A DNA stretch of 64,000 bases, from positions 9,908-73,907 of the forward strand of contig DWZH01000008.1 of assembly GCA_019118275.1 (NCBI GenBank), written 5' to 3'. Position numbers and translations under genes: made by a program. This DNA is from Candidatus Brachybacterium merdavium (lineage in GTDB: Bacteria; Actinomycetota; Actinomycetes; Actinomycetales; Dermabacteraceae). The notes under the pieces were generated by a model, which was given only the letters and a program-made list of their open reading frames with translations, was not told the DNA's origin and did not search any database. The number at the start of each line of letters is the position of its first letter. The first letter of the stretch is position 1. Shown here one piece after another: positions 44,738 to 56,369 of this stretch.

Positions 44738-46534
44738 TCAGCGCGCGGCCAGCGCCGCCAGGATCCGCTCATCGACCGCCCGGCGTGAGGCCAGGTGCTG
44801 GCCCACGTCGTAGGAGAACGAGGAGTAGGTCAGTGTGCCGCCCTCATCGATCAGCGCCTTCGCGCTCGCCGGATCGGTCAGCTCCGCCAGCCAGGTCAGC
44901 GCCCGATGATCGGCCATGGCCTGGGCGAACACCCGGTGGCGGATCGACAGCCAGGCCGAGCCGTCCGGACCGGGGTAGACCGCGAAGGCGTCCCCGCCGA
45001 AGAAACCGCCGCCCGCACAGGTCTCCTCGAACGGGTCGATGGGCCGCAGCGAGAACTGCGACCACCAGAAGTTGTATCCCCAGTGCAGGAACCCGGGCGC
45101 GTCGAAGGCGAACAGCTGCCGGCCCAGCACCCGGTTGCGCACCGAGGGCAGGGCGATGAACCGGTTGGCCACGTCCCGGTTCTGCGAGACGCAGTAATAC
45201 ACCCACGGCCGCTGCCCGGCCTCCAGGAAGGGGCCGACGTGGTTGGTCGCCACGATCGGGGTGTCGACCACGCCGCGCCGGGCGAACTCGTAGGAGCTGA
45301 GGGCATCGACCACCCGGGCCCCCTCCAGCAGATCCGCCACCTGCTCCTTGGCGGCCTGGTACGGCTCGAGCTGATCCTCGCGCGGCTCATCGCTGATGTG
45401 CCACAGCACCTCGCCCTCCCAGGCATCGTCCAGGTGTTCGCGCAGCGCCGGGATCAGCGCCTCCAGCAGCCGGCGGTAGGCGGGCGAGGTCGCCGGGACG
45501 TGCCAGCCGAAACGGTCCTCCACACCCTCGGTGGTCCGCACCTGGATCGCCGGGGTGAACCGGGCGCCCCACTGCGTGAACAGGTGCGCGATCTCCAGGG
45601 AGCGCATCCCAAGGTCACGGCAGATCCCCAGCCAGCGGTCCAGCCGGGAGAAGTCGAAGGTGTACCCGGCGCCGGTGTCGGTGATCCCCACCAGCTGCAC
45701 CACCGGGCGCGTGTGCCCCTCGGCGGTGTCCAGCGGCGGGGTCCAGGTGGGGGTGAGCACGGAGTTGACGTCCATCTCGCGGGCCGAGGCCAGATGCGTT
45801 CGGATCAGCTCCCAGTGCCGTTCGGAGAACACCTCGACGTCGTAGTAGGTCGACAGCGAATCCGCATGGAACCAGTGGGTGTTGGTGATCGTCAGCTCCG
45901 GCAGGCGATGCGGGTGGATCTGCACCTGCGCCGTGTGCTCGGCCAGCACCTGCGCGCCGTCCCCATCCGAGACGGTGATCGTCACCTCGTGCTCGCCCGC
46001 ATCGGCTTCGGACTCGGCGATCACGTCGATCCACAGCGCCTCCCAGCGGCCCGGGGTCAGCTCCACGGTGCCCTCGGTGACCGGCTCGAGCAGGTCGGGG
46101 TAGTCACCGGGTTCGGTGACCAGGTAGTGCTCGTCCGCGTTCTCCGGTGCCGGGGACGAGACCGGCACCCGTCGGACGGTGCTCAGCCGCACGAGCTCGG
46201 CAGCCGAGCCGCTGACCTGCACCTCGATGGCCGCGGTGGGGTCCTCCAGGGGCCGGGCGTGGGCGACGCGGTCCGCTGGGGCGGTATCCGGGGCGCTGTC
46301 GGAATCCAGATGCAGCGCGAGCTGCAGCGAGAGCACCTCCCCGAGGAACCCGGAGGCGTGGAATCCGCCGACGAGCTCGGCCGGTCGCGGCTCGGTCTCG
46401 CCGAACACCTTCTCCAGGGAATCGGTCAGAACAGAGAACACCGGGGAATACTCCTGGGCTACGTCGTCGGATCGTGGATAGAACGAGCTCGATACGGGAA
46501 CCAGGCCCGGGGGATGGGGCAGAAGCGCTCGCAT
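44738..46534 (-). CDS. DUF4091-type glycoside-hydrolase-like protein
   Basis: Recognition is by overall pattern only (SLEKVF near the N-terminus, a central TIM-like region with WTPPLDT..., HWGYNFW). GTG 46441 (VFSVLTDSLEKVF) is a plausible alternative start. It is divergent from a sugar ABC operon. Confidence 0.6.
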   Translation of the reverse strand: MRALLPHPPGLVPVSSSFYPRSDDVAQEYSPVFSVLTDSLEKVFGETEPRPAELVGGFHASGFLGEVLSLQLALHLDSDSAPDTAPADRVAHARPLEDPTAAIEVQVSGSAAELVRLSTVRRVPVSSPAPENADEHYLVTEPGDYPDLLEPVTEGTVELTPGRWEALWIDVIAESEADAGEHEVTITVSDGDGAQVLAEHTAQVQIHPHRLPELTITNTHWFHADSLSTYYDVEVFSERHWELIRTHLASAREMDVNSVLTPTWTPPLDTAEGHTRPVVQLVGITDTGAGYTFDFSRLDRWLGICRDLGMRSLEIAHLFTQWGARFTPAIQVRTTEGVEDRFGWHVPATSPAYRRLLEALIPALREHLDDAWEGEVLWHISDEPREDQLEPYQAAKEQVADLLEGARVVDALSSYEFARRGVVDTPIVATNHVGPFLEAGQRPWVYYCVSQNRDVANRFIALPSVRNRVLGRQLFAFDAPGFLHWGYNFWWSQFSLRPIDPFEETCAGGGFFGGDAFAVYPGPDGSAWLSIRHRVFAQAMADHRALTWLAELTDPASAKALIDEGGTLTYSSFSYDVGQHLASRRAVDERILAALAAR

Positions 46535-46822
46535 CGACGTGCCGGACCGGCAGCCATGAGCGATTCAGCGCCCGAGACAGCAGACGGTTCCCGCGCGGCC
46601 CGAGGGAGTGCCCCCGACAGCGGCACACCTTCGCACCGAACATGCGTTCCAATGATTGTACGGCGTGGTTTCGATCACATGCAATCATGTAGGATCGATC
46701 GGTGGCGCGTCGTTGGATACGACGGACGGTGGAACTGCGAGAGAGTTCTTCGTCCCGGGCCAGCCTGGCACGAAAGCACTTCACCGTGCAGTGGCGTCCG
46801 AGCACTCGATGAGGAGAACAGG

Positions 46823-48088
46823 ATGACGGCAACCCCTCTACGACGACGGACCGTGCTGGCAGGAGCGGGGCTCTCCGCCCTCGCGGTGGCGTCGGGGTGT
46901 GGCGGCGAGCAGGCGGGATCGGGCAGAGAGATCGAATTGTGGCTGCCCGGTCCGCAAGGCACCGTCGGCATCCAGCACGAGCTGGAGTTCTACCAGAACC
47001 TGTTGGAGCCCTTCATGGAGGAGCACGGGATCCAGGTCGCCCTCAGCCTGACCCCCTGGGAGAGCTACGAGGAGAAGTACCTGACGGGCGTCTCCAGCGG
47101 CACGGGGCCCGACGTCGGCTACATGTACACCGAGATGATGGGGGACTACGTCCAGGCAGAGGCGATCGTTCCCGTCGATGAGTACCTATCCCCCAGTGCC
47201 CGTGAACGCATGCTCTACCTGGACGAGGGCACGTTCGACGGGCACCAGTACGGCGTGCCCTACGTGGTCGGCAATGCACGCGGCATCTGGGCCAACACAG
47301 CGTTGCTCGACCGGGCTGGTATTGATGACCTGCCCGCCACGTGGGAGGAGTTCACGGACGCGGCGGCGAAGGTCCAGCGCGATCTGGATGTCGCGGGCGT
47401 GGTGATGGCCTGGGGGAACCAGGCCCGCGGAATGATGAACGAGTCCTTCTTCCCCTTCCTCTGGCAGGCGGGTGGCGAGATCTTCACCGAGGATGGGTCG
47501 AGCACCGCCTTCAACAGTCCGGCCGGGGCCGAGGCCGCGATCTTTCTGCGTGAGCTGCTCGATGTCGGCGCCATGCCCGGATACAGCTCGGGGCTCGACG
47601 GCGACGACACCGAGGCGATGTTCCTCGAGGGTCGAGCTGCTTTCGCCCCCGGTGCCACCGGTCAACTGGGGTTGTTCGGTGAGGAGCTCGCCGAGTTCGA
47701 GTTCATCGACTCGCTCGCCCGGGAGACCCGGGCGACGTTCGTGGCCAACGATGCCCTCATCCTCACCGAGAAGTGCCCGGACAAGGAGCTCGGCACGGCC
47801 CTGATCGAGTTCCTGACCGCCGGTGAGAACATGGAGCGCTTCCATACCGAGGTCAGGGCCTCGCCGCCCATCGCCACGGATGAGGAGCCCGATCCCGATG
47901 ACCCTTTCAAGGACACCTATGCGGAGACGGACATGCTTCGTGGCCTTCCGATCATGCCGCAGGGCAACGCCACCTATAACGCGCTGTACGAGAACCTCCA
48001 GCAACTGGTCATGGGCCGCAAGACCCCTGAGCAGGCGCTGTCGCACGCCGCGGCCGCCGGTGACGCGGCACTGGCAGCAGGAGCGTGA
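46823..48088 (+). CDS. ABC transporter sugar-binding lipoprotein (SBP family 1)
   Basis: The ATG lies 7 nt after GAGGAG. It has a Tat-type lipoprotein leader (LRRRTVLAGAGLSALAVASGCGG). The upstream 676 codons of the listed 1097-aa ORF are antisense to the DUF4091 gene. Confidence 0.85.
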   Translation: MTATPLRRRTVLAGAGLSALAVASGCGGEQAGSGREIELWLPGPQGTVGIQHELEFYQNLLEPFMEEHGIQVALSLTPWESYEEKYLTGVSSGTGPDVGYMYTEMMGDYVQAEAIVPVDEYLSPSARERMLYLDEGTFDGHQYGVPYVVGNARGIWANTALLDRAGIDDLPATWEEFTDAAAKVQRDLDVAGVVMAWGNQARGMMNESFFPFLWQAGGEIFTEDGSSTAFNSPAGAEAAIFLRELLDVGAMPGYSSGLDGDDTEAMFLEGRAAFAPGATGQLGLFGEELAEFEFIDSLARETRATFVANDALILTEKCPDKELGTALIEFLTAGENMERFHTEVRASPPIATDEEPDPDDPFKDTYAETDMLRGLPIMPQGNATYNALYENLQQLVMGRKTPEQALSHAAAAGDAALAAGA

Positions 48089-49018: not shown

Positions 49019-49895
49019 GCTGACCACGCCCCACCGATCGCGCGCCTCGAACTCGCCTCCCGCCGATGGCCACAGGACCGGGATCAAACGCTCCCGAACC
49101 GGGAACGCGGTCTGGGCGATCCTGCTGAGCGGTCTGGTGCTGCTGGCCCTGCTGCCGTTCGTGTTCATGGCCGTCACCTCGGTCCAGGAGACCGCGAGGA
49201 TGACCGCACTTCTCAACCCTGCCGACTTCTCCCTGGACAACTATGTGCGCCTGTTCGGTGAGAACCGTTTCGCCAGGGCCCTGCTGAACAGCTCCATCGT
49301 GGTGGTGATCGGGTGCGCGCTGAACATCGTGGTGTGCTCGATGGCCGCCTTCGCCTTCGAGAAGAAGACGTTCCCCGGCTCGGAGGTGGTCTTCTGGATC
49401 TACGTGGCCACGATGATGGTCCCAGGGCAGGTCACGCTGATCCCGCTGTACGGCATCATGCGCGATCTGGGATTGCTCAATACTCACATCGCGCTCGCCC
49501 TCCCGGTGGTCAATGCTTTCGGGGTGTTCCTGATCCGTCAGTTCATGAAGGGCATCCCGGACGATCTGCTCGACGCCGCTCGGATCGATGGCGCCTCCGA
49601 CTTCCGGATCTTCGTGCGGATCATCCTCCCGCTGGTGAAGCCGGTGATCATCGCGCTCACCGTGTTCACGTTCCTGACCACCTGGAACGACTTCCTGTGG
49701 CCGCTGGTCTCGATCACGGAGGCAGAGATGGAGACCGTCACGCTGGCGGCGGCGAACCTCCAGGGGCGATTCACCACCGACTACGGCCTGGTGATGGCCG
49801 GGGCGACCGTGACCTTCCTGGTGCCTTTGATCCTGTACGTCGTCCTCCAGAAGCAGTTCGTCGAAGGCGTCGTCTCCTCCGGTGTGAAGGGCTGA
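49011..49895 (+). CDS. carbohydrate ABC transporter permease
   Basis: EAA loop LLDAARIDGASDFRIFVRIILPLVKP. It overlaps the preceding permease by 8 nt. Confidence 0.9.
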   Translation: MTELTTPHRSRASNSPPADGHRTGIKRSRTGNAVWAILLSGLVLLALLPFVFMAVTSVQETARMTALLNPADFSLDNYVRLFGENRFARALLNSSIVVVIGCALNIVVCSMAAFAFEKKTFPGSEVVFWIYVATMMVPGQVTLIPLYGIMRDLGLLNTHIALALPVVNAFGVFLIRQFMKGIPDDLLDAARIDGASDFRIFVRIILPLVKPVIIALTVFTFLTTWNDFLWPLVSITEAEMETVTLAAANLQGRFTTDYGLVMAGATVTFLVPLILYVVLQKQFVEGVVSSGVKG

Positions 49896-50396
49896 CGGCC
49901 CGTCCGACGCGGCACTGATGACACCAGCAGAGCACGCCACCCGGGAAAGCTCTGACCTCAGTTGCCATCAGGCTGCACCACCCACCTGCCGTGGTGTTGA
50001 GCGCTCTTCTTCGCGCCCGGAATAATCCGTTGCGCCGCTCACCCGCCCGGTCCTACGGTGGAGGCACACAGGAAGGGAGGTGGTCCAAAGAATGAATTCG
50101 TCTTGGACTTGTGAGGTGGCTCGCCGCTGAGGCGACCCTCGACCTGACCCGCCATCGGCGGACCATCAGATCGACGGACGTGCAGCGAATCCCACCGAGC
50201 TGCCCGGACCCGCAGGGGTCGGACCTCGTCCATCCGACCGGCGCCCAGCGCAACCTGCGGGTCTGCCCCTGCCCGATTCCGGGACGAGCCCGCGCCGTCG
50301 CCGGCCTGTCGATGGGGAGTACTGCCCATCGACCCCGCCGTCGGCCCCCTCTACGGTCGGGAAGCGCGATCCGACGGACCGAAGGGGCACACGGCG

Positions 50397-51251
50397 ATGC
50401 GTTCGACCGAGCTCGATGAGCACCCACGACTCACCACCCTGGCCGGGGCCGACCGCCTCGTGCGCCTCGGTGTCGAGACCTACGATTGGATGCGGGAGAG
50501 CGCCCTCGGGCGTGCCACGACCCCGCCCCCCGCGACCGCCGTCCAGCAGCTGCGCGACGCCGCGCTGCTCGATCCGCACAGCCCGGATCGTCCGCAGCTG
50601 GAGACCCACTGGCTGCAGCTGCTGCGCCGCGCCCTGAACTCCCCGGTCCGCCTCGACCTGGTCAGCATCGACGGGGCGCGCGCCTGGACCACCACCATCC
50701 ACGTCGCCGGCCAGATGCTGCTGGCCCTGGACCAGGTCCGCGAGGTCTTCCGCGACGACGGCGCTCTCGAGCTGGGCCGCCGCAGCTCCGCGCTGACCCT
50801 GGCCGTCGGTCGCGTCCAGCGTTTCAGCGAGTTCGTCATCGGACTGGTCCCCCAGCGGCCCGCCTTCGGCGCCGAGGCGTCGGGCCCGGCCCCCGAGGCC
50901 CTGATCGACGCGCCGGCTGTGGCGCAGGTCCAGATCATGGTCAGCTCGACCCCCGGCGCCGACGGGCGGGGCGTGCGGGAGCGCTCCTGGTACGCCCTGG
51001 GTGAGGAGGGCACGCAGCTCGCCGCGCTGGTGGGCGAGGACGACCAGCGCCGCCTCGATCCCGTCCCCACCGGCCGCTTCGCCGAGTTCCTGCGCGCCGA
51101 TCTGGTCGCCGCCATCCAGCAGGCCTCCGACGGCGCCGCTCGCCCCGACGCCTCCGGGGCTGACGCTGCCGGGCCCGACGCCGCCGGGTCCGACGCTGCC
51201 GGGTCCGACGCCGCGGGGCCTGACGCCTCGGGCGAGGAGGCCGCCCGATGA
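50397..51251 (+). CDS. hypothetical protein, translationally coupled to the WXG-lipase gene (candidate chaperone/immunity partner)
   Basis: 284 aa. The ATG lies ~10 nt after GAAGGGG, and the frame is closed upstream at 50145 with no earlier start codon. The stop overlaps the next start (ATGA at 51248-51251). The C-terminus has six DA(A/S)G(P/S/A/E) pentapeptide repeats. No family motif is recognisable by eye. Confidence 0.55.
   Translation: MRSTELDEHPRLTTLAGADRLVRLGVETYDWMRESALGRATTPPPATAVQQLRDAALLDPHSPDRPQLETHWLQLLRRALNSPVRLDLVSIDGARAWTTTIHVAGQMLLALDQVREVFRDDGALELGRRSSALTLAVGRVQRFSEFVIGLVPQRPAFGAEASGPAPEALIDAPAVAQVQIMVSSTPGADGRGVRERSWYALGEEGTQLAALVGEDDQRRLDPVPTGRFAEFLRADLVAAIQQASDGAARPDASGADAAGPDAAGSDAAGSDAAGPDASGEEAAR
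51147..51236 (+). repeat. six tandem 15-bp repeats (GACGCNGCCGGGNCC) encoding DA(A/S)G(A/P/S/E) pentapeptides
   Basis: Units start at 51147, 51162, 51177, 51192, 51207 and 51222, in frame, within the 3' end of the 50397-51251 CDS. Confidence 0.8.
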
Positions 51252-52648
51252 GCTTCTGGGGGATGGACACCGAGCAGGTGCTCAGCAGCGCCGACGCCGT
51301 CGAACTCGCCGCCGGCCGGCTGGAGGAGATCCTCGATCAGCTCCAGCAGGCGACCACCTCGGCCGCCTGGGAGGGAGCCGATGCCGATGCCTTCCGGGAC
51401 CGCTGGCAGCAGGTCCGCACCCGGGGCGAGGCGCTCGTGCTGCCCGAGCTGCGGGACCGCTCCCGGGTGCTGGCACAGCACGTCGAGGAACAGGACCGCG
51501 CCTCCGACGAGGCTGGCGGCGAGGGGTTCTGGGACGGGGTCAGCGACTTCTTCGGGGACCTTCGTGACGGTGCCGCGACACTGATCGACACGGTCGGGGA
51601 GGGAGTTCAGTGGCTGAGCGACCGGGTCGGAGAGGGCTTCGATGCCCTGGTCGGCACCGGCCAGGCCCGCTGGCAGGGGGTGACCGACTACGTCACCACT
51701 CTGGGCGGCAACATCGCCGAGGTCCTGAAGACTCCCTCCGGGATGGTCGAGAACCTGCTGTCCACCGGGCGGTTGCCCACGCTGACAGAGCTGGTCGTCG
51801 GAGGCATCGACCTCGGCCTGGATACTGTGAACATGCTGGGGCACGCCTTGACCGGGAACGACATCGGTCTGGCCGATGACGGCAACGGCTACGCCGATGC
51901 TCCCCAGCAGATCGTCCCGGGCCAGGACGGCGCGCCCGATCTGCGCGACCCCACCTCGGTGGCCGACATCGTGCACAACACCAATGCCAGCTACGGCGAC
52001 GCCGAGACCGGGGAGGTCGCGATGACCGTGGTGCGCGATGACAGCGGCGAGGTCACCGGTGTGGTCGCGAACGTCCCCGGCACGGAGCACTGGGGGCCCG
52101 TCGCCGGTGACAACCCGATGGACCTGACCGGGAACGCCGCCCAGGCCGGACCCGCCGGCCACTCGGCGGGCGCTGAGGCCACTGCCGATGCCATCGACCA
52201 GCTCTACCGCGAGCACGGCATCCCGCCGGACACACCGCTGATGATCTCCGGCCATTCGCAGGGAGGCATGATCGCCAGCTCCCTCGCGGCCGATCAGGAC
52301 TTCGCCTCCCGTTACAACCTTGCGAGCGTGATGTCCTACGGGTCCCCGGTCGACAACTACACCGTCAACCCCGACGTGGACTACCTGCACTTCCAGCACG
52401 AGGGGGACCCGGTCCCGATGATCGACGCCGGCGGCTACCCCTACTCGGACACCGACCATCCCAACGTGGAGACCGTCACCTTGCCCGGACCCCACGACGG
52501 GCTGAACTTCGACAACCATGGCAGCTCGGCGTACTACGACTCCATCGACGCGACCGGTGACGCCCACCGCAACGGCATGGAGCAGTTCCTGGTCGGTCCC
52601 GGCGGCAGCGCCGACCACTACACCTCGGGTGTCCACCGTGACAATTGA
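51248..52648 (+). CDS. WXG100-like N-terminal domain fused to an alpha/beta-hydrolase (lipase/esterase-like) domain; candidate T7SS polymorphic toxin
   Basis: The N-terminal ~90 aa are MSFWGMDTEQVLSSADAVELAAGRLEEILDQLQQATTSAAWEGADADAFRDRW..., two predicted helices with W41-E-G43 at the turn. The C-terminal ~230 aa carry the nucleophile elbow ISGHSQGGMIA (Ser337 codon at 52256-52258), GDPVP and downstream His candidates. No signal peptide. Confidence 0.65.
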   Translation: MSFWGMDTEQVLSSADAVELAAGRLEEILDQLQQATTSAAWEGADADAFRDRWQQVRTRGEALVLPELRDRSRVLAQHVEEQDRASDEAGGEGFWDGVSDFFGDLRDGAATLIDTVGEGVQWLSDRVGEGFDALVGTGQARWQGVTDYVTTLGGNIAEVLKTPSGMVENLLSTGRLPTLTELVVGGIDLGLDTVNMLGHALTGNDIGLADDGNGYADAPQQIVPGQDGAPDLRDPTSVADIVHNTNASYGDAETGEVAMTVVRDDSGEVTGVVANVPGTEHWGPVAGDNPMDLTGNAAQAGPAGHSAGAEATADAIDQLYREHGIPPDTPLMISGHSQGGMIASSLAADQDFASRYNLASVMSYGSPVDNYTVNPDVDYLHFQHEGDPVPMIDAGGYPYSDTDHPNVETVTLPGPHDGLNFDNHGSSAYYDSIDATGDAHRNGMEQFLVGPGGSADHYTSGVHRDN

Positions 52649-52699
52649 GGAATCACCGTCCTGCCAGGGGTCCCAGCGTTGGGGACGTAGCCTCGGAGC

Positions 52700-53359
52700 A
52701 TGACCATGCCGCCGCAGAATCCACCTGTCGCACTGATCTCCGAGACCATCGACGATGCTGCCGTCGTCCGCTCCCGCCCCACGGAGGACCCCGCCCCGAT
52801 GGTGCTGCTGCTGCACGGCCTGGGCAGCGACGAGCGCGACCTGGCCGGACTGGTCCCGCACCTGCCGCCGGACTTCTCCTACGTGTCCCTGCGCGGCATC
52901 CACCGCTACGTGCAGGGCTACGCCTGGTTGGACTCCACGATCGATCCCGCCCGCCCGGAGGCCCTGCAGACCTCGGCCGCCGCCGTCGAATCCTGGATCG
53001 ACGAGCAGCCCGCCCTGGTGGTCGGCGCGATCGGCTTCTCCCAGGGCGGGATGCTGGCCCTGCAGCTGCTGCGCCGCGATGCCCGCGCGCTGGACTGGGT
53101 CGTCCAGCTGTCCGGTGCGCCGTTCCCGGCTCCGATGCCGGGCGACGCCGCGCTCGCGCGCCGACGGCCCCGCGCACTGTGGGGCCACGGCGGGCTGGAC
53201 CCCCTCTTCGACGAGGAGCGCGAAGAACTGGTGCGCGAGTTCATGACCGCGCACACGCGCCTGGAGGAGGAACGACGGCCCGAGCTGGGACACGCCGTCG
53301 ATGAGATCGAGCTGCGCGCCGTCGCAGCCTTCCTGCAGCGCCGGGCCGACGAGGCCTGA
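52700..53359 (+). CDS. phospholipase/carboxylesterase family alpha/beta hydrolase
   Basis: VLLLHGLGSDERDL, nucleophile elbow GFSQGG, acid HGGLDPLF and His ELGHAV. 219 aa, typical of this family. Confidence 0.8.
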   Translation: MTMPPQNPPVALISETIDDAAVVRSRPTEDPAPMVLLLHGLGSDERDLAGLVPHLPPDFSYVSLRGIHRYVQGYAWLDSTIDPARPEALQTSAAAVESWIDEQPALVVGAIGFSQGGMLALQLLRRDARALDWVVQLSGAPFPAPMPGDAALARRRPRALWGHGGLDPLFDEEREELVREFMTAHTRLEEERRPELGHAVDEIELRAVAAFLQRRADEA

Positions 53360-53775
53360 GCCAGCCCGTCCTGCCCGCGTCGAGTTCTACCCCCACCGAG
53401 CTCTGCGAAGCTGCTGTTCAGCGCCCTCTTAGCAACAACTTTGCAGAACTCGATGCTGCATACATCGCGATCGCGGACGGGCCGTGCACGCGCTCCTGGT
53501 GGTCGGGATCTCAAGCCGGGCGCGGTCCGCGAGGGGAAGGGCCCGGACACGGCGCCTCTCTCCGATCCGGTCGGCTCCTGAGGGGCATCCGGACGTGACT
53601 CTCCCGATGCTCCCGCACCCAGCGTTCCGGCTGTAGCATTCCTTCATTCCCCGCCGAGAGACGGCGGTGATTATGAGGAGCACCAGGAGATCATGAGCGC
53701 CGCCAGCGACGCCCCTAGTGACAGTCCCGGGCCTTCGGGCCTGAGAACACGTGCACATCCCGGACGGGCGGGCCG

Positions 53776-55332
53776 ATGGATCTGATCGGCATCATCGTCT
53801 CCCTCGGCGTCAGCCTGCTGCTGATCGTCGCCTGCGGCGCCTTCGTCGCCGCTGAATTCTCCCTGATCACCACCAACCGCAACGACGTCGAAGCCGCGGT
53901 CGAGAGCGGGGACAAGCGGGCCAGGGGCGTCCTGCAGGGCATGAAGACCCTGTCCACGCAGCTGTCGGGCTCCCAGCTCGGCATCACCGTGACGAACCTG
54001 GGGATCGGCTTCCTGGCCGAACCGGCGATCGCCGCGATCATCGCCCCGCCCTTGATGGACGCGGGGCTGACCGCCGTCATGGCCCGCACCGTGTCGGTCG
54101 CGATCGCCCTGATCCTGGCCACCGGCATGACCATGATCTTCGGGGAGCTGGTCCCCAAGAACATGGCGATCGCCCAGCCGTTGCGCACCGCCAAGCTGGT
54201 GGTCGGCTTCCAGCGGGTCTTCACCACTGTGCTGAGGTTGCCCATCCGACTGTTCAACGGCAACGCCAACGCCGTGGTGCGGGCCCTGGGCGTCGAGCCC
54301 CAGGAGGAGCTGGGCTCGGCCCGCAGCGCCGATGAGCTGTATGTCCTGGTGCGCCGCTCGGCCGCCGAGGGGGCCATGGCCGCCGAGACCGCCCACCTGG
54401 TCCAGCGCACCCTGGCCTTCGGCGATCGCCGCGCCCACGACGCGATGGTCCCGCGCGGACGCATGGAGGTCCTCGAGAGCGGTGACAGCGTCGAGCAGCT
54501 GCTGGACACCTCCCGCACCACCGGGCACTCCCGCTTCCCCGTCCTGACCGACGACGGGGACGTCGCCGGCATCGCCCACATCCGCCACGGCCTGGCCGTG
54601 CCGTTCACCGAGCGGCCGGGAACCGCCGTGGACGCGGTGATGGGCACCGCCACCTTCGTGCCCGACACCGTCCCGCTGGACGACCTGATGGACACACTGC
54701 GCGCCGGCGGGCTCCAGATGGCCGTGGTGGTCGACGAGTTCGGCGACACCGCCGGGCTGATCACCCTGGAGGACCTGGTGGAGGAGATCGTCGGCGAGGT
54801 CCGCGACGAGCACGACGAGGAGACCGACGACGAGCCCGAGCCCGACGGGTCCTGGGACCTCGATGCCCGCCTGCGCCCCGATGAGGCCACGGAACGACTG
54901 GGCGTGACCGTTCCCGAGCACGAGGACTACGACACCCTGGGCGGGCTGGTCACGCTCGAGCTGGGCCGTCTGGCCGAGGTCGGCGACGAGATCGTGGTCG
55001 ACACCGACCCCGCTCCGGGCGAGGACCCGGCCCAGCTGCGCATCGAGGTCACCGAGGTCGACGGGCTGCGGATCGAGACCGTCCACGTGATGGTCGAGGC
55101 CGCAGCCTCGCAGGAGGATGCCGACAGCGGTGACCACAACGGCCATGACAGCCGTGCGGGCCGCGAAAGCAGCGAGCCCCGTGGCGACTCCCGGGAGGAG
55201 CCCCGCAGCGACGGCGAGGCGGCGGAGCCCGAGACATCCTGGGGCCAGCGCCGACCGCGGACCGAGCACGAGGTCGACCCCGATGACGGCGGGCTCAGCG
55301 CCCGCAGTCTGCGTCGGGAGGGTCGGCGATGA
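53776..55332 (+). CDS. DUF21-CBS-CorC_HlyC (CNNM/hemolysin-family) membrane protein with acidic C-terminal tail
   Basis: DUF21 N-terminus (VAAEFSLI, GELVPKNMA), a CBS pair, and a CorC_HlyC-like segment (WDLDARLRPDE...) followed by an ~80-aa disordered tail. The stop overlaps the next start (ATGA). Confidence 0.85.
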   Translation: MDLIGIIVSLGVSLLLIVACGAFVAAEFSLITTNRNDVEAAVESGDKRARGVLQGMKTLSTQLSGSQLGITVTNLGIGFLAEPAIAAIIAPPLMDAGLTAVMARTVSVAIALILATGMTMIFGELVPKNMAIAQPLRTAKLVVGFQRVFTTVLRLPIRLFNGNANAVVRALGVEPQEELGSARSADELYVLVRRSAAEGAMAAETAHLVQRTLAFGDRRAHDAMVPRGRMEVLESGDSVEQLLDTSRTTGHSRFPVLTDDGDVAGIAHIRHGLAVPFTERPGTAVDAVMGTATFVPDTVPLDDLMDTLRAGGLQMAVVVDEFGDTAGLITLEDLVEEIVGEVRDEHDEETDDEPEPDGSWDLDARLRPDEATERLGVTVPEHEDYDTLGGLVTLELGRLAEVGDEIVVDTDPAPGEDPAQLRIEVTEVDGLRIETVHVMVEAAASQEDADSGDHNGHDSRAGRESSEPRGDSREEPRSDGEAAEPETSWGQRRPRTEHEVDPDDGGLSARSLRREGRR

Positions 55333-56369
55333 GCACCGCGACCGGACTGATCCTGACCCTCGTGCTGCTGATCGCCAACGCGTTCTTCGTCGGCGCCGAG
55401 TTCGCCCTGATCTCCGCCCGCCGCTCCGTGATCGAACCCAAGGCGCTCGAGGAGAACTGGGCCGCCAAAGTCACCATCCGGGCGATGGAGCAGGTCTCGC
55501 TCATGATGGCCGGCGCCCAGCTGGGCATCACCGTGTGCTCGCTGGCATTGGGCGCCATCAGCGAACCCGCCATCGCCCGCCTGCTGATGGTGCCGTTTGA
55601 GGCGATCGGGATGCCCGCCTCGATGCTCCACCCGGTCTCCTTCGCGATCGCGCTGGCGATGGTGACCTACCTCCACGTGGTGTTCGGGGAGATGGTCCCC
55701 AAGAACATCGCCCTGGCCGGCCCCGAGCGGATGGCACTGGTCCTGGCGCCGATGCTGATGGGCGTGGTCACCGTGCTGCGGCCGGTGCTGTGGACGTTCA
55801 ACGGAATCGGCAACCTGGTCCTGCGCACGATGGGCATCACCCCGAAGGCAGAGGTGAACAGCGTGTTCACCCGCAACGAGGTGGCGGCAATGGTCAGCGA
55901 GTCCCGTGAGGGCGGCCTGTTGGAGGACAACGACGAGGCGCTGCTGCTGGGGGCGCTGACCTTCGAGGCCCGCAGCGTCGCCAACCTGATCATCCCGCCC
56001 GAACGCGTGGCCACCCTGCCCCAGGGCGTCACCGCCGCCCAGGCCGAGACCGCAGCCGTGGAGGGCTTCTCCCGCTTCCCGGTCACGGCGGCCGACGGCA
56101 CCCTGGTGGGTTACGTCCACATCAAGGACCTGCTCGAGGCCGCGGCCGACGCTCGGGACGAGCCGATCCCCAGCGCCCGGATCCGCGAGCTTCCCCGGAT
56201 CGGCTCCGAGCAGCCGCTGCGGGAGGCGCTCAAGAGCATGCAGGCCTCCGGCGCCCACCTCGGCGCCGCCACCGACGCGAACGGCACCGTGATCGGCATC
56301 GTCACTCTCGAGGACATGCTCGAGGAGCTGGTGGGCCAGATCCGCGACGACTCCCGCCTGGTCGCCTGA
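55329..56369 (+). CDS. DUF21-CBS (CNNM/hemolysin-family) membrane protein
   Basis: A paralogue of the preceding gene (VGAEFALISAR, GEMVPKNIA, and a CBS pair ending IGIVTLEDMLEELVG). Confidence 0.85.
   Translation: MSTATGLILTLVLLIANAFFVGAEFALISARRSVIEPKALEENWAAKVTIRAMEQVSLMMAGAQLGITVCSLALGAISEPAIARLLMVPFEAIGMPASMLHPVSFAIALAMVTYLHVVFGEMVPKNIALAGPERMALVLAPMLMGVVTVLRPVLWTFNGIGNLVLRTMGITPKAEVNSVFTRNEVAAMVSESREGGLLEDNDEALLLGALTFEARSVANLIIPPERVATLPQGVTAAQAETAAVEGFSRFPVTAADGTLVGYVHIKDLLEAAADARDEPIPSARIRELPRIGSEQPLREALKSMQASGAHLGAATDANGTVIGIVTLEDMLEELVGQIRDDSRLVA

Follow-up and report, generated by a model that had tools for sequence, protein, structure and literature searches.

Analysis of a 64-kb stretch of Candidatus Brachybacterium merdavium DNA (contig DWZH01000008.1, positions 9,908 to 73,907; the whole stretch is referred to below as the window) revealed a two-gene module that, with moderate confidence, encodes a T7SS (type VII secretion system) substrate together with a dedicated cytoplasmic chaperone predicted to adopt the EspG fold. 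The putative substrate is a 466-amino-acid (aa) protein in which a WXG100-like helical hairpin and a helical linker precede a serine hydrolase domain. The putative chaperone is a 284-aa partner encoded immediately upstream. In relatives of the module, a lipoprotein gene commonly follows the hydrolase gene, and this third gene is missing from the window. If the module does serve type VII secretion, the case for an antibacterial function of the window copy is about evenly balanced.

The gene pair and its two proteins

The window has a G+C content of about 70% and actinobacterial character. Open reading frames (ORFs) were analyzed together with AlphaFold (AF2) models, for which confidence is given as the predicted local distance difference test (pLDDT). 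The module comprises the following features.

50397..51251, plus strand: partner gene, 284 aa
51156-51248, plus strand: low-complexity tail of the partner, residues 254-284, PDASGADAAGPDAAGSDAAGSDAAGPDASGEEAAR, made up of Ala/Asp/Gly/Ser/Pro and disordered in the model
51234..51251, plus strand: putative translational coupling signals, with GAGGAGG at 51234-51240, the hydrolase ATG at 51248-51250, and the partner TGA at 51249-51251
51248..52648, plus strand: hydrolase gene, 466 aa
51248..51517, plus strand: WXG100-like helical hairpin, hydrolase residues 1-90 (AF2 helices, profile matches, invariant G43)
51518..51883, plus strand: helical linker, residues ~91-212 (repeats in the alignment, AF2 helices)
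51884..52648, plus strand: alpha/beta-hydrolase domain, residues ~213-466 (pLDDT >90, near-threshold PGAP1 and Lipase_3 matches, conserved triad)
52250-52264, plus strand: nucleophile elbow G335-H-S337-Q-G339
52406-52408, plus strand: Asp387 of the triad, within G386-D387-P-V-P390
52517-52519, plus strand: His424 of the triad
52649..52699, no strand: 51-bp intergenic spacer at the place where relatives carry the lipoprotein gene (blastn boundaries)

The coordinates of both ORFs and the 4-base ATGA overlap shared by the partner stop and the hydrolase start were confirmed in the ORF list and the sequence, as given in the original prediction, which had been made from the letters alone. A Shine-Dalgarno-like GAGGAGG is positioned 7 nt 5' of the hydrolase start; read together with the overlap, it has the classic layout of translational coupling. 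Both ORFs are real genes, because the G+C content at third codon positions (0.87/0.89 for the two genes) exceeds that at second positions (0.60/0.47), database searches returned 100 and 20 homologues, and ratios of nonsynonymous to synonymous substitutions (dN/dS) of 0.24-0.39 across the pair indicate purifying selection. The closest named relatives belong to Brachybacterium species, with about 50% identity for the hydrolase.

The AF2 model of the 466-aa protein (pLDDT 79) revealed a hairpin of two helices (residues 8-38 and 44-86) with W41-E42-G43 (nt 51368-51376) at the turn between them, where the motif had also been read from the sequence. No N-terminal hydrophobic signal was seen on sequence reading, in agreement with the prediction that the protein lacks a signal peptide. 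Scored individually, the window hydrolase reached 23.5 bits against the WXG100 family PF06013 (cut-off, 27.3) and 24.2 bits against TIGR03930 (cut-off, 44.85). A family profile was built from 56 hydrolase relatives. This profile aligned to residues 1-84 of EsxA from Staphylococcus aureus (2vs0), over its full length, with E=1.1e-5 and with the WxG motif in register, and about 10 more solved WXG100 proteins followed, including MAB_3112, EsxB, SAG1039, and gbs1074. When the 56 members were scanned singly, 23 matched PF06013 at E<=0.01. The proposed WXG100-like character of the N terminus was thus borne out at the profile level. A few members matched PF21725 (T7SS_signal; 4/56, weakly), EspA/EspE, or EspC, and LXG (PF04740) was not among the Pfam matches of the window hydrolase at E<=1.

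G43 is invariant in the 56-member alignment, and the Trp position is swapped in some distant members. Helix 2 ends in a conserved stretch, V79-xx-Q82-D83-xx-S86. The published C-terminal pattern of WXG100 proteins reads hydrophobic-xxx-D/E-xx-h-xxx-hydrophobic (PMC3935865). Its first half is kept in the family (V79-xxx-D83, with Q82 and S86 at least 90% conserved), and the position of its second half is taken by an acidic, Gly-rich junction to the linker. The linker itself consists of degenerate "DWxGD"-type repeats, the copy number of which varies widely in the family, and was modeled as helices 96-129 (pLDDT <50), 140-173, and 179-202. A conserved turn, G-x-(W/L)-P177-x-x-T-E (nt ~51761-51790), in which P177 is at least 90% conserved, ends the repeats and, as far as its conservation can indicate, is a candidate chaperone-binding tip. 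The N-terminal hairpin and the helical linker would together form the export domain.

The C-terminal domain shows the canonical topology of a catalytic triad: GHSQG follows strand 331-336, D387 follows strand 378-384, and H424 follows strand 407-412 in the AF2 model. Ser337 in GHSQG and the GDPVP motif are located where they had been placed; in the alignment, H336, S337, Q338, G339, H384, P390, and H424 are invariant and D387 is at least 90% conserved. The window protein scored 22.6 bits against PF07819 (PGAP1; cut-off, 24.3) and 21.7 bits against PF01764 (Lipase_3; cut-off, 22). PGAP1 was matched by 53 of the 56 family members and PF06259 (Abhydrolase_8), weakly, by 12. Foldseek searches with the full-length model returned generic lipases, cutinases/PETases, and thioesterases including TesA, with E values of at least 1.2e-3. 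These matches support an alpha/beta-hydrolase of the PGAP1/Lipase_3/cutinase kind, as foreseen, and do not sustain the narrower label "lipase," because the Pfam scores lie slightly below their curated cut-offs and the structural matches are generic. Motif conservation and the model together justify the description of the window protein as a serine alpha/beta-hydrolase that is esterase/lipase-like.

The partner carries no signal peptide or transmembrane segment according to its sequence, and sequence searches against Pfam (E<=1), NCBIfam, and the PDB returned nothing, whether for the protein alone or for a family profile. Its AF2 model (pLDDT 82.8; predicted template modeling [TM] score, 0.79) was built from 17 sequences. 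Comparison of this model with the PDB by Foldseek revealed EspG3 structures as all of the top 11 matches (E=3.9e-8 to 2.1e-5, probability 1.0; 255-302 aligned columns, TM 0.40-0.50). Among these structures (4rcl, 5sxl, 4l4w, 6uuj, 4w4j, 4w4i, 6vhr, 5xkl, and 5dlb), which come from Mycobacterium tuberculosis, M. smegmatis, and M. marinum, is the PE5-PPE4-EspG3 complex. The next match had E=1.4e-2, about 1000-fold worse, and from there on the folds were unrelated. EspG proteins combine very low sequence conservation with similar structures (PMC6109436), and the EspG-fold proteins EsaE, TscG, and TshG of other T7SS types were also recognized by structure prediction alone (PMC11217815).

An exhaustive partner search of representatives yielded 54 clusters, and every named partner copy is annotated as "hypothetical protein." The partner families of the Brachybacterium type and of other genera are homologous to each other (hhalign, 98.3%, E=2e-14, 223 columns). 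In a large homology search, a broad partner profile gave 19 matches, all "hypothetical," and no bridge to an annotated EspG. The low-complexity tail varies in length and sequence among the closest relatives, one of which (P0109) has a far longer D/R/T/A repeat, and is missing from more distant partners. The partner is predicted to be a cytoplasmic EspG-fold chaperone, which by sequence falls outside the EspG Pfam family PF14011. The suggestion that it could be EspG-like therefore stands for the predicted fold, with its 11 EspG3 matches, and fails for PF14011, which gave none.

Relatives, secretion machinery, and competing explanations

The gene neighborhoods of 80 related loci from Micrococcales and Propionibacteriales were compared by clustering of the flanking ORFs, and a census by hidden Markov models (HMMs) covered 81 loci including the window. 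Among GTDB species representatives, at least 387 hydrolase loci were confirmed, with carriers including Brachybacterium, Arthrobacter, Paenarthrobacter, Janibacter, Promicromonospora, Cellulosimicrobium, Nocardioides, and Propionibacteriaceae. A partner gene is adjacent to the hydrolase gene and co-oriented with it in 72 of the 81 loci (68 upstream, 4 downstream) and usually overlaps the hydrolase start. The lipoprotein gene lies directly 3' of the hydrolase gene in 58/81 loci. Partner and lipoprotein are both present in 54/81, and a partner without a detectable lipoprotein was found in 18/81. At E<=1e-3, the lipoprotein HMM matched 65 of the 80 related loci, among them every one of the seven Brachybacterium genomes. 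The encoded protein has about 140 aa and, by sequence reading, a signal peptide with a lipobox (LLAAC, LAGC, ITAC) or a membrane anchor. The canonical cassette consequently reads chaperone-like partner, WXG-hydrolase, lipoprotein.

By analogy with known toxin systems, the downstream lipoprotein is likely the immunity protein in these relatives. Three tandem lipoprotein copies follow the hydrolase in L040:11262-12730 (Specibacter) and L049:1061-2565 (Cellulosimicrobium), a situation reminiscent of staphylococcal T7SS toxins with their immunity genes in arrays of variable size. In Brachybacterium epidermidis (L001:11825-13396, plus strand), a 523-aa ORF is located between the hydrolase and lipoprotein genes. 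It matched an HNH endonuclease with E=4.5e-4 (20.7 bits versus a cut-off of 21.4) and may be the insertion of a selfish element that splits a toxin-immunity pair. Loci of the Nocardioides type (L042, L051, L060, and L062-L065; e.g., L063:11378-11725) carry a gene of about 115 aa 3' of the hydrolase gene. Its product is weakly related to the lipoprotein (E ~1e-5 to 1e-4) and was called without a signal peptide or lipobox; it represents a cytoplasmic variant unless its start codon was miscalled.

The designation of the module as "polymorphic" found no support, since every detectable relative bears the same hydrolase cargo. All homologues of partial coverage keep the WXG and hydrolase segments, in a search that was biased towards the hydrolase domain. 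A 304-aa protein encoded beside a T7SS-type ATPase (L052:8063-8977, plus strand) has a WXG-like N terminus and a remainder without a Pfam match. To judge from this sequence, it may be a second substrate with another cargo, and it was the sole hint of cargo variability. Since the window lacks an immunity gene beside the hydrolase gene and no variation of the cargo was seen, the module is classed by its mode of action with T7SS effector-chaperone pairs and not with the polymorphic LXG toxins. The neighborhoods of two paralogous Brachybacterium WXG-hydrolases, P0092 and P0094, contained housekeeping genes alone.

Comparison by blastn revealed that 36 bp of the window (52651-52686) stand for 550 bp in L082 that include the lipoprotein gene, with clean boundaries. 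The gene is also absent from L084 and L081, the hydrolases of which are 88% and 70% identical to that of the window, and present in L082 (51% identity) and throughout L001-L007, of which L001 is from B. epidermidis (50%). The dN/dS ratio of the hydrolase gene against L084 was 0.24 overall (0.23 for the WXG region, 0.30 for the linker, and 0.19 for the catalytic region), and that of a neighboring esterase, used as a control, was 0.17-0.21. Among the three hydrolase regions, the linker had the highest values (0.30-0.67). The partner had a dN/dS of 0.37 against L081. The lineage of the window has lost the lipoprotein gene and keeps the enzyme and the partner under purifying selection, with the catalytic residues intact. 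A toxin kept with its immunity lost is the reverse of the usual pattern and the main unexplained point. An immunity gene could lie at another place in the genome, the producer could be devoid of the target, or the enzyme could have a non-toxic role. The proposal of an antibacterial toxin is plausible from the lipoprotein arrangement of the relatives and is weakened for the window copy, which has no immunity gene beside it.

A link to the secretion machinery was found in three relatives. An FtsK/SpoIIIE ATPase (980-1690 aa) adjoins a family member in L047 (Micropruina), L052 (Propionicimonas), and L080 (Aeromicrobium). An N-terminal FHA/YscD-type domain of the ATPase was detected in L052 and L080, and in the 982-aa ORF called for L047, ATPase domains alone were seen. 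The gene order in L047 is FHA protein, Ser/Thr kinase, ATPase, WXG100, hydrolase, membrane-anchored small protein, partner, FHA protein. Pfam confirmed a small WXG100 gene in L080 and, with a score of 30.1 bits that exceeds the cut-off, in L047; an 88-aa gene of L052 fell into the cluster of the L047 gene. The Ser/Thr kinase was confirmed in L047 and has a clustered homologue in L052. This gene set matches that of T7SSd, an Actinomycetota-specific variant with the WXG100 protein TsdA, the FHA-bearing ATPase TsdC, and the kinase TsdD (PMC11217815). A search of the literature on T7SS in Brachybacterium or Micrococcales found nothing relevant.

Under the explanation favored here, the partner would bind the helical N-terminal region of the hydrolase, with the P177 turn as a candidate site, in the way that EspG binds the PPE tip and EsaE acts with EsaD. 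It would keep the substrate soluble and deliver the complex to an ATPase of the EccC/EssC type whose gene lies in another part of the genome, and the exported hydrolase would then act on an ester substrate of the envelope. In the relatives, the lipoprotein on the outer face of the membrane would neutralize the exported enzyme at the surface of the producer. A hydrolase followed by a lipoprotein gene is, by analogy, the arrangement of an antibacterial effector that targets the envelope.

Several observations weigh against this explanation. The WXG100, PGAP1, and Lipase_3 scores of the window protein itself all fall slightly short of the curated cut-offs. The EspG likeness of the partner is confined to the fold, with TM scores of 0.40-0.50, a root mean square deviation of about 8 Å, and a model built from few sequences; PF14011 matched none of 42 partner-family members and none of 10 distant representatives, and the partner family profiles A2 and A3 retrieved no EspG chain among PDB sequences. 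The sole direct genomic tie to the machinery is a T7SS-type ATPase within 10 kb in 3/81 loci. No FtsK/SpoIIIE, EccB/D, mycosin, or other T7SS machinery was found in the 64-kb window or within about 10 kb past each end (~84 kb), which agrees with the earlier observation that the window holds no EccC/EssC, EccB/D, or mycosin gene. Small helical partner genes of the Lap/Tap type were not found, the hydrolase being the only WXG-like ORF of the window. With filters switched off, two lipoprotein HMMs gave only noise (best E=0.42) in the six-frame translation of the window, and a missing immunity-like gene is odd for a self-toxic effector.

The alternative that survives best retains export and chaperone and holds that the enzyme of this lineage is not antibacterial. 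It would instead be a secreted exo-enzyme in the manner of LipY, a PE-lipase exported by ESX-5 in which a lipase is joined to a helical export domain. Such an enzyme could serve nutrient scavenging, remodeling of the producer's own envelope, or attack on a eukaryotic or other foreign substrate, and the lipoprotein would be a dispensable regulator, anchor, or inhibitor. The clean absence of the lipoprotein gene from the window, L081, and L084, with hydrolase and partner under selection and the triad intact, fits this alternative, as do the 18 loci with a partner and no detectable lipoprotein and the lack of cargo polymorphism. The genes that flank the module in the window, which serve carbohydrate and peptide uptake and degradation, point in the same direction. 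However, the dominant layout of hydrolase followed by lipoprotein, at times in tandem copies, is a toxin-immunity signature, and an immunity gene could sit elsewhere in the genome or be too divergent for detection. Taken together, an exo-enzyme is unlikely.

The partner was alternatively considered as a cytoplasmic immunity protein or antitoxin that inhibits the hydrolase, the pair then being a toxin-immunity cassette, as the original prediction had allowed. Tight translational coupling, near-universal co-occurrence, and a fast-evolving, narrowly detectable partner family (its 54 representative clusters), which is common for immunity proteins, speak for this. However, the predicted fold matches EspG chaperones specifically, and T7SS immunity genes normally adjoin the toxin-domain end (PMC10730906), where the relatives encode the lipoprotein that is gone from the window. 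In L047 and L052, where the partner gene follows that of the lipoprotein, the linkage persists as well. Given the EspG-specific fold and the lipoprotein at the toxin-domain end, the partner was rejected as an immunity protein, a role that is very improbable. It is no less doubtful that the module has nothing to do with secretion, i.e., that a cytoplasmic hydrolase has a coiled-coil N terminus convergent with WXG100 and an unrelated regulatory subunit as its partner: sub-threshold Pfam scores, the want of T7SS genes within ~84 kb, and the ease with which helical hairpins match would favor this, whereas three independent signals (the Esx profile match, the EspG-fold partner, and the adjacency of ATPase and WXG100 genes in three loci) oppose it, and the extracytoplasmic lipoprotein of the relatives implies that the enzyme leaves the cytoplasm.

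Neighboring features in the window

Further features were located on either side of the gene pair.

49997-50026, plus strand: sigma-70-like promoter TTGAGC-18-AATAAT, the sole match in 49800-53500 (0.1 expected by chance)
50066-50271, plus strand: small RNA (sRNA) Ms_IGR-5 (Rfam RF02471), full-length match, 71.4 bits versus a gathering score of 45, E=8e-14
52700-53359, plus strand: cytoplasmic Abhydrolase_2 protein (phospholipase/carboxylesterase, PF02230), E=4e-14, 51 bp after the hydrolase gene
53776-55332 and 55329-56369, plus strand: two CNNM/CorC-type (CBS-domain) transporter genes with a 4-base overlap
44795-48088, plus strand: 1097-aa ORF with a GTG start, of which the real gene is the C-terminal ~440 aa, from about 46766

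The Ms_IGR-5 match lies in the 501-bp gap upstream of the partner gene (49896-50396) and ends 126 nt before that gene. This gap had been described as unassigned and as expected for an accessory cassette, and that description does not apply to a gap that holds a conserved sRNA. The sRNA also occurs at L082:277-485 and L001:8852-9060, and the stretch is near-invariant between the window, L081, and L082, the flanking proteins of which are 50-70% identical. Ms_IGR-5 is a conserved actinobacterial sRNA that is expressed as a stand-alone RNA elsewhere. Because it accompanies the module in one Brachybacterium sub-lineage only, it is probably an independent neighbor, and a role as a cis-regulatory leader of the module was judged unlikely. 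Since about 40 nt separate the promoter from the start of the sRNA match downstream, it more probably serves Ms_IGR-5 than the module. The region from the sRNA to the end of the esterase gene revealed no intrinsic terminator-like site.

Synteny of the Abhydrolase_2 esterase gene with the module is shared by the window, L081, L084, L001, and probably L082, and not by other Brachybacterium species. It was excluded as a member of the module, its synteny being confined to this sub-lineage. A link to the secreted hydrolase, for example by clearing lyso-lipid products, would be pure speculation. The CNNM/CorC pair is ordinary and conserved in the related contigs L083 and L088. The real gene within the 1097-aa ORF encodes the substrate-binding lipoprotein of a sugar ABC transporter (SBP_bac_1), and the upstream part of this ORF overlaps a GH123 gene on the opposite strand (44738-46534).

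Comparison with known systems

The description of T7SS effector biology in actinobacteria other than mycobacteria has just begun (2024-2026). The closest system in logic is EsaD-EsaE-EsaG, the T7SSb nuclease toxin system of S. aureus, in which a toxin with an N-terminal helical export domain of the WXG/LXG type is likewise encoded beside a dedicated chaperone. EsaE is predicted to have the EspG fold despite negligible sequence identity (PMC11217815). The cargo of EsaD is a nuclease, whereas that of the window protein is a serine hydrolase proposed to act outside the cytoplasm; EsaG is a cytoplasmic inhibitor, whereas the candidate immunity protein of the relatives is an extracytoplasmic lipoprotein. 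The window module further differs in its high-GC actinobacterial host and in its lack of small Lap-like partners.

Closest in phylum and in type of immunity are the Eat loci. In Mycobacterium abscessus, EatA/TapA1-TapA2/EatI comprises a T7SS effector with an N-terminal helical domain, a downstream lipoprotein as immunity protein, and an extracellular target, and in Eat-like loci of Actinomycetota alpha/beta-hydrolases are reported to be the commonest class of payload (PMC13444075). Upstream of the effector, Eat loci encode one or two small helical Tap proteins (~80-120 aa), whereas the module encodes a predicted EspG-fold protein of about 280 aa in this place. Eat loci carry the lipoprotein; the window copy does not. 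The main text of that study deals with Mycobacteriales, and neither Micrococcales nor partners resembling EspG come up in it (PMC13444075).

The partner model matches EspG3 structures of the PE/PPE-EspG systems (e.g., PE5-PPE4-EspG3, 6uuj). EspG is strictly cytoplasmic, binds the helical tip of its substrate, and targets the substrate to the cognate T7SS (PMC6109436). The PE/PPE-EspG substrate is a PE-PPE heterodimer, whereas the putative substrate in the window is a single chain with a WXG100 hairpin. The espG, pe, and ppe genes were modeled as acquired within mycolate lineages (PMC4791881), whereas the module occurs in non-mycolate Micrococcales and Propionibacteriales.

In its pairing of enzyme and immunity, the module is closest to TslA/TilA/TlaA1-TlaA2 of the S. 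aureus T7SSb, where an exported phospholipase A is encoded with a lipoprotein immunity gene beside the toxin domain, in variable tandem copies (PMC10730906). The domain order of TslA is reversed, with the helical domain at the C terminus, and its partners are small Lap-like proteins rather than an EspG-fold chaperone. No sequence relationship between TslA and the hydrolase family was detected. Pfam architectures of Actinobacteria that combine PF21725 or PF06013 with PF06259 likewise join a T7SS-type helical domain to an alpha/beta-hydrolase. The window hydrolase matches neither PF21725 nor PF06259, and no functional work on these architectures was found in the literature.

T7SS-exported hydrolase effectors with lipoprotein immunity in Actinomycetota are already known (published in 2026), and EspG-fold chaperones outside mycobacteria were proposed in 2023-2024. 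New are a widespread, unannotated partner family with a predicted EspG fold that is tightly coupled to WXG100-hydrolases, a possible tie of the family to T7SSd-like clusters, and a lineage with effector and chaperone but without the lipoprotein. The analysis defines a widespread three-gene cassette of predicted EspG-fold chaperone, WXG100-hydrolase, and lipoprotein, the chaperone component of which escapes sequence annotation; the partner and lipoprotein families could become profile models for annotation. If the favored explanation is correct, the EspG mechanism is tied neither to PE/PPE substrates nor to mycolate-containing bacteria, and a link to T7SS-mediated competition would arise for common actinobacteria of soil, skin, and food, among them Brachybacterium and Arthrobacter. 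The lineage without immunity would then give a direct handle on the determinants of enzyme self-toxicity.

It is conceivable, and offered here tentatively, that an EspG-fold family beyond mycolate actinobacteria serves single-chain WXG100 enzymes through a remote T7SSd-like or other non-ESX machine, and that the window effector has shed its immunity and turned from an antibacterial weapon dangerous to its bearer into an enzyme harmless to the producer. This harmlessness would come from a changed target or a changed envelope of the producer. The EspG chaperone mechanism would then predate PE/PPE, and a natural pair of toxins with and without immunity would be available for study. The module as found is unlike each of the known systems, as it combines a predicted EspG-fold chaperone with a single-chain WXG100 enzyme, has no Lap/Tap proteins, resides in non-mycolate hosts, and in the window stands without an immunity gene.

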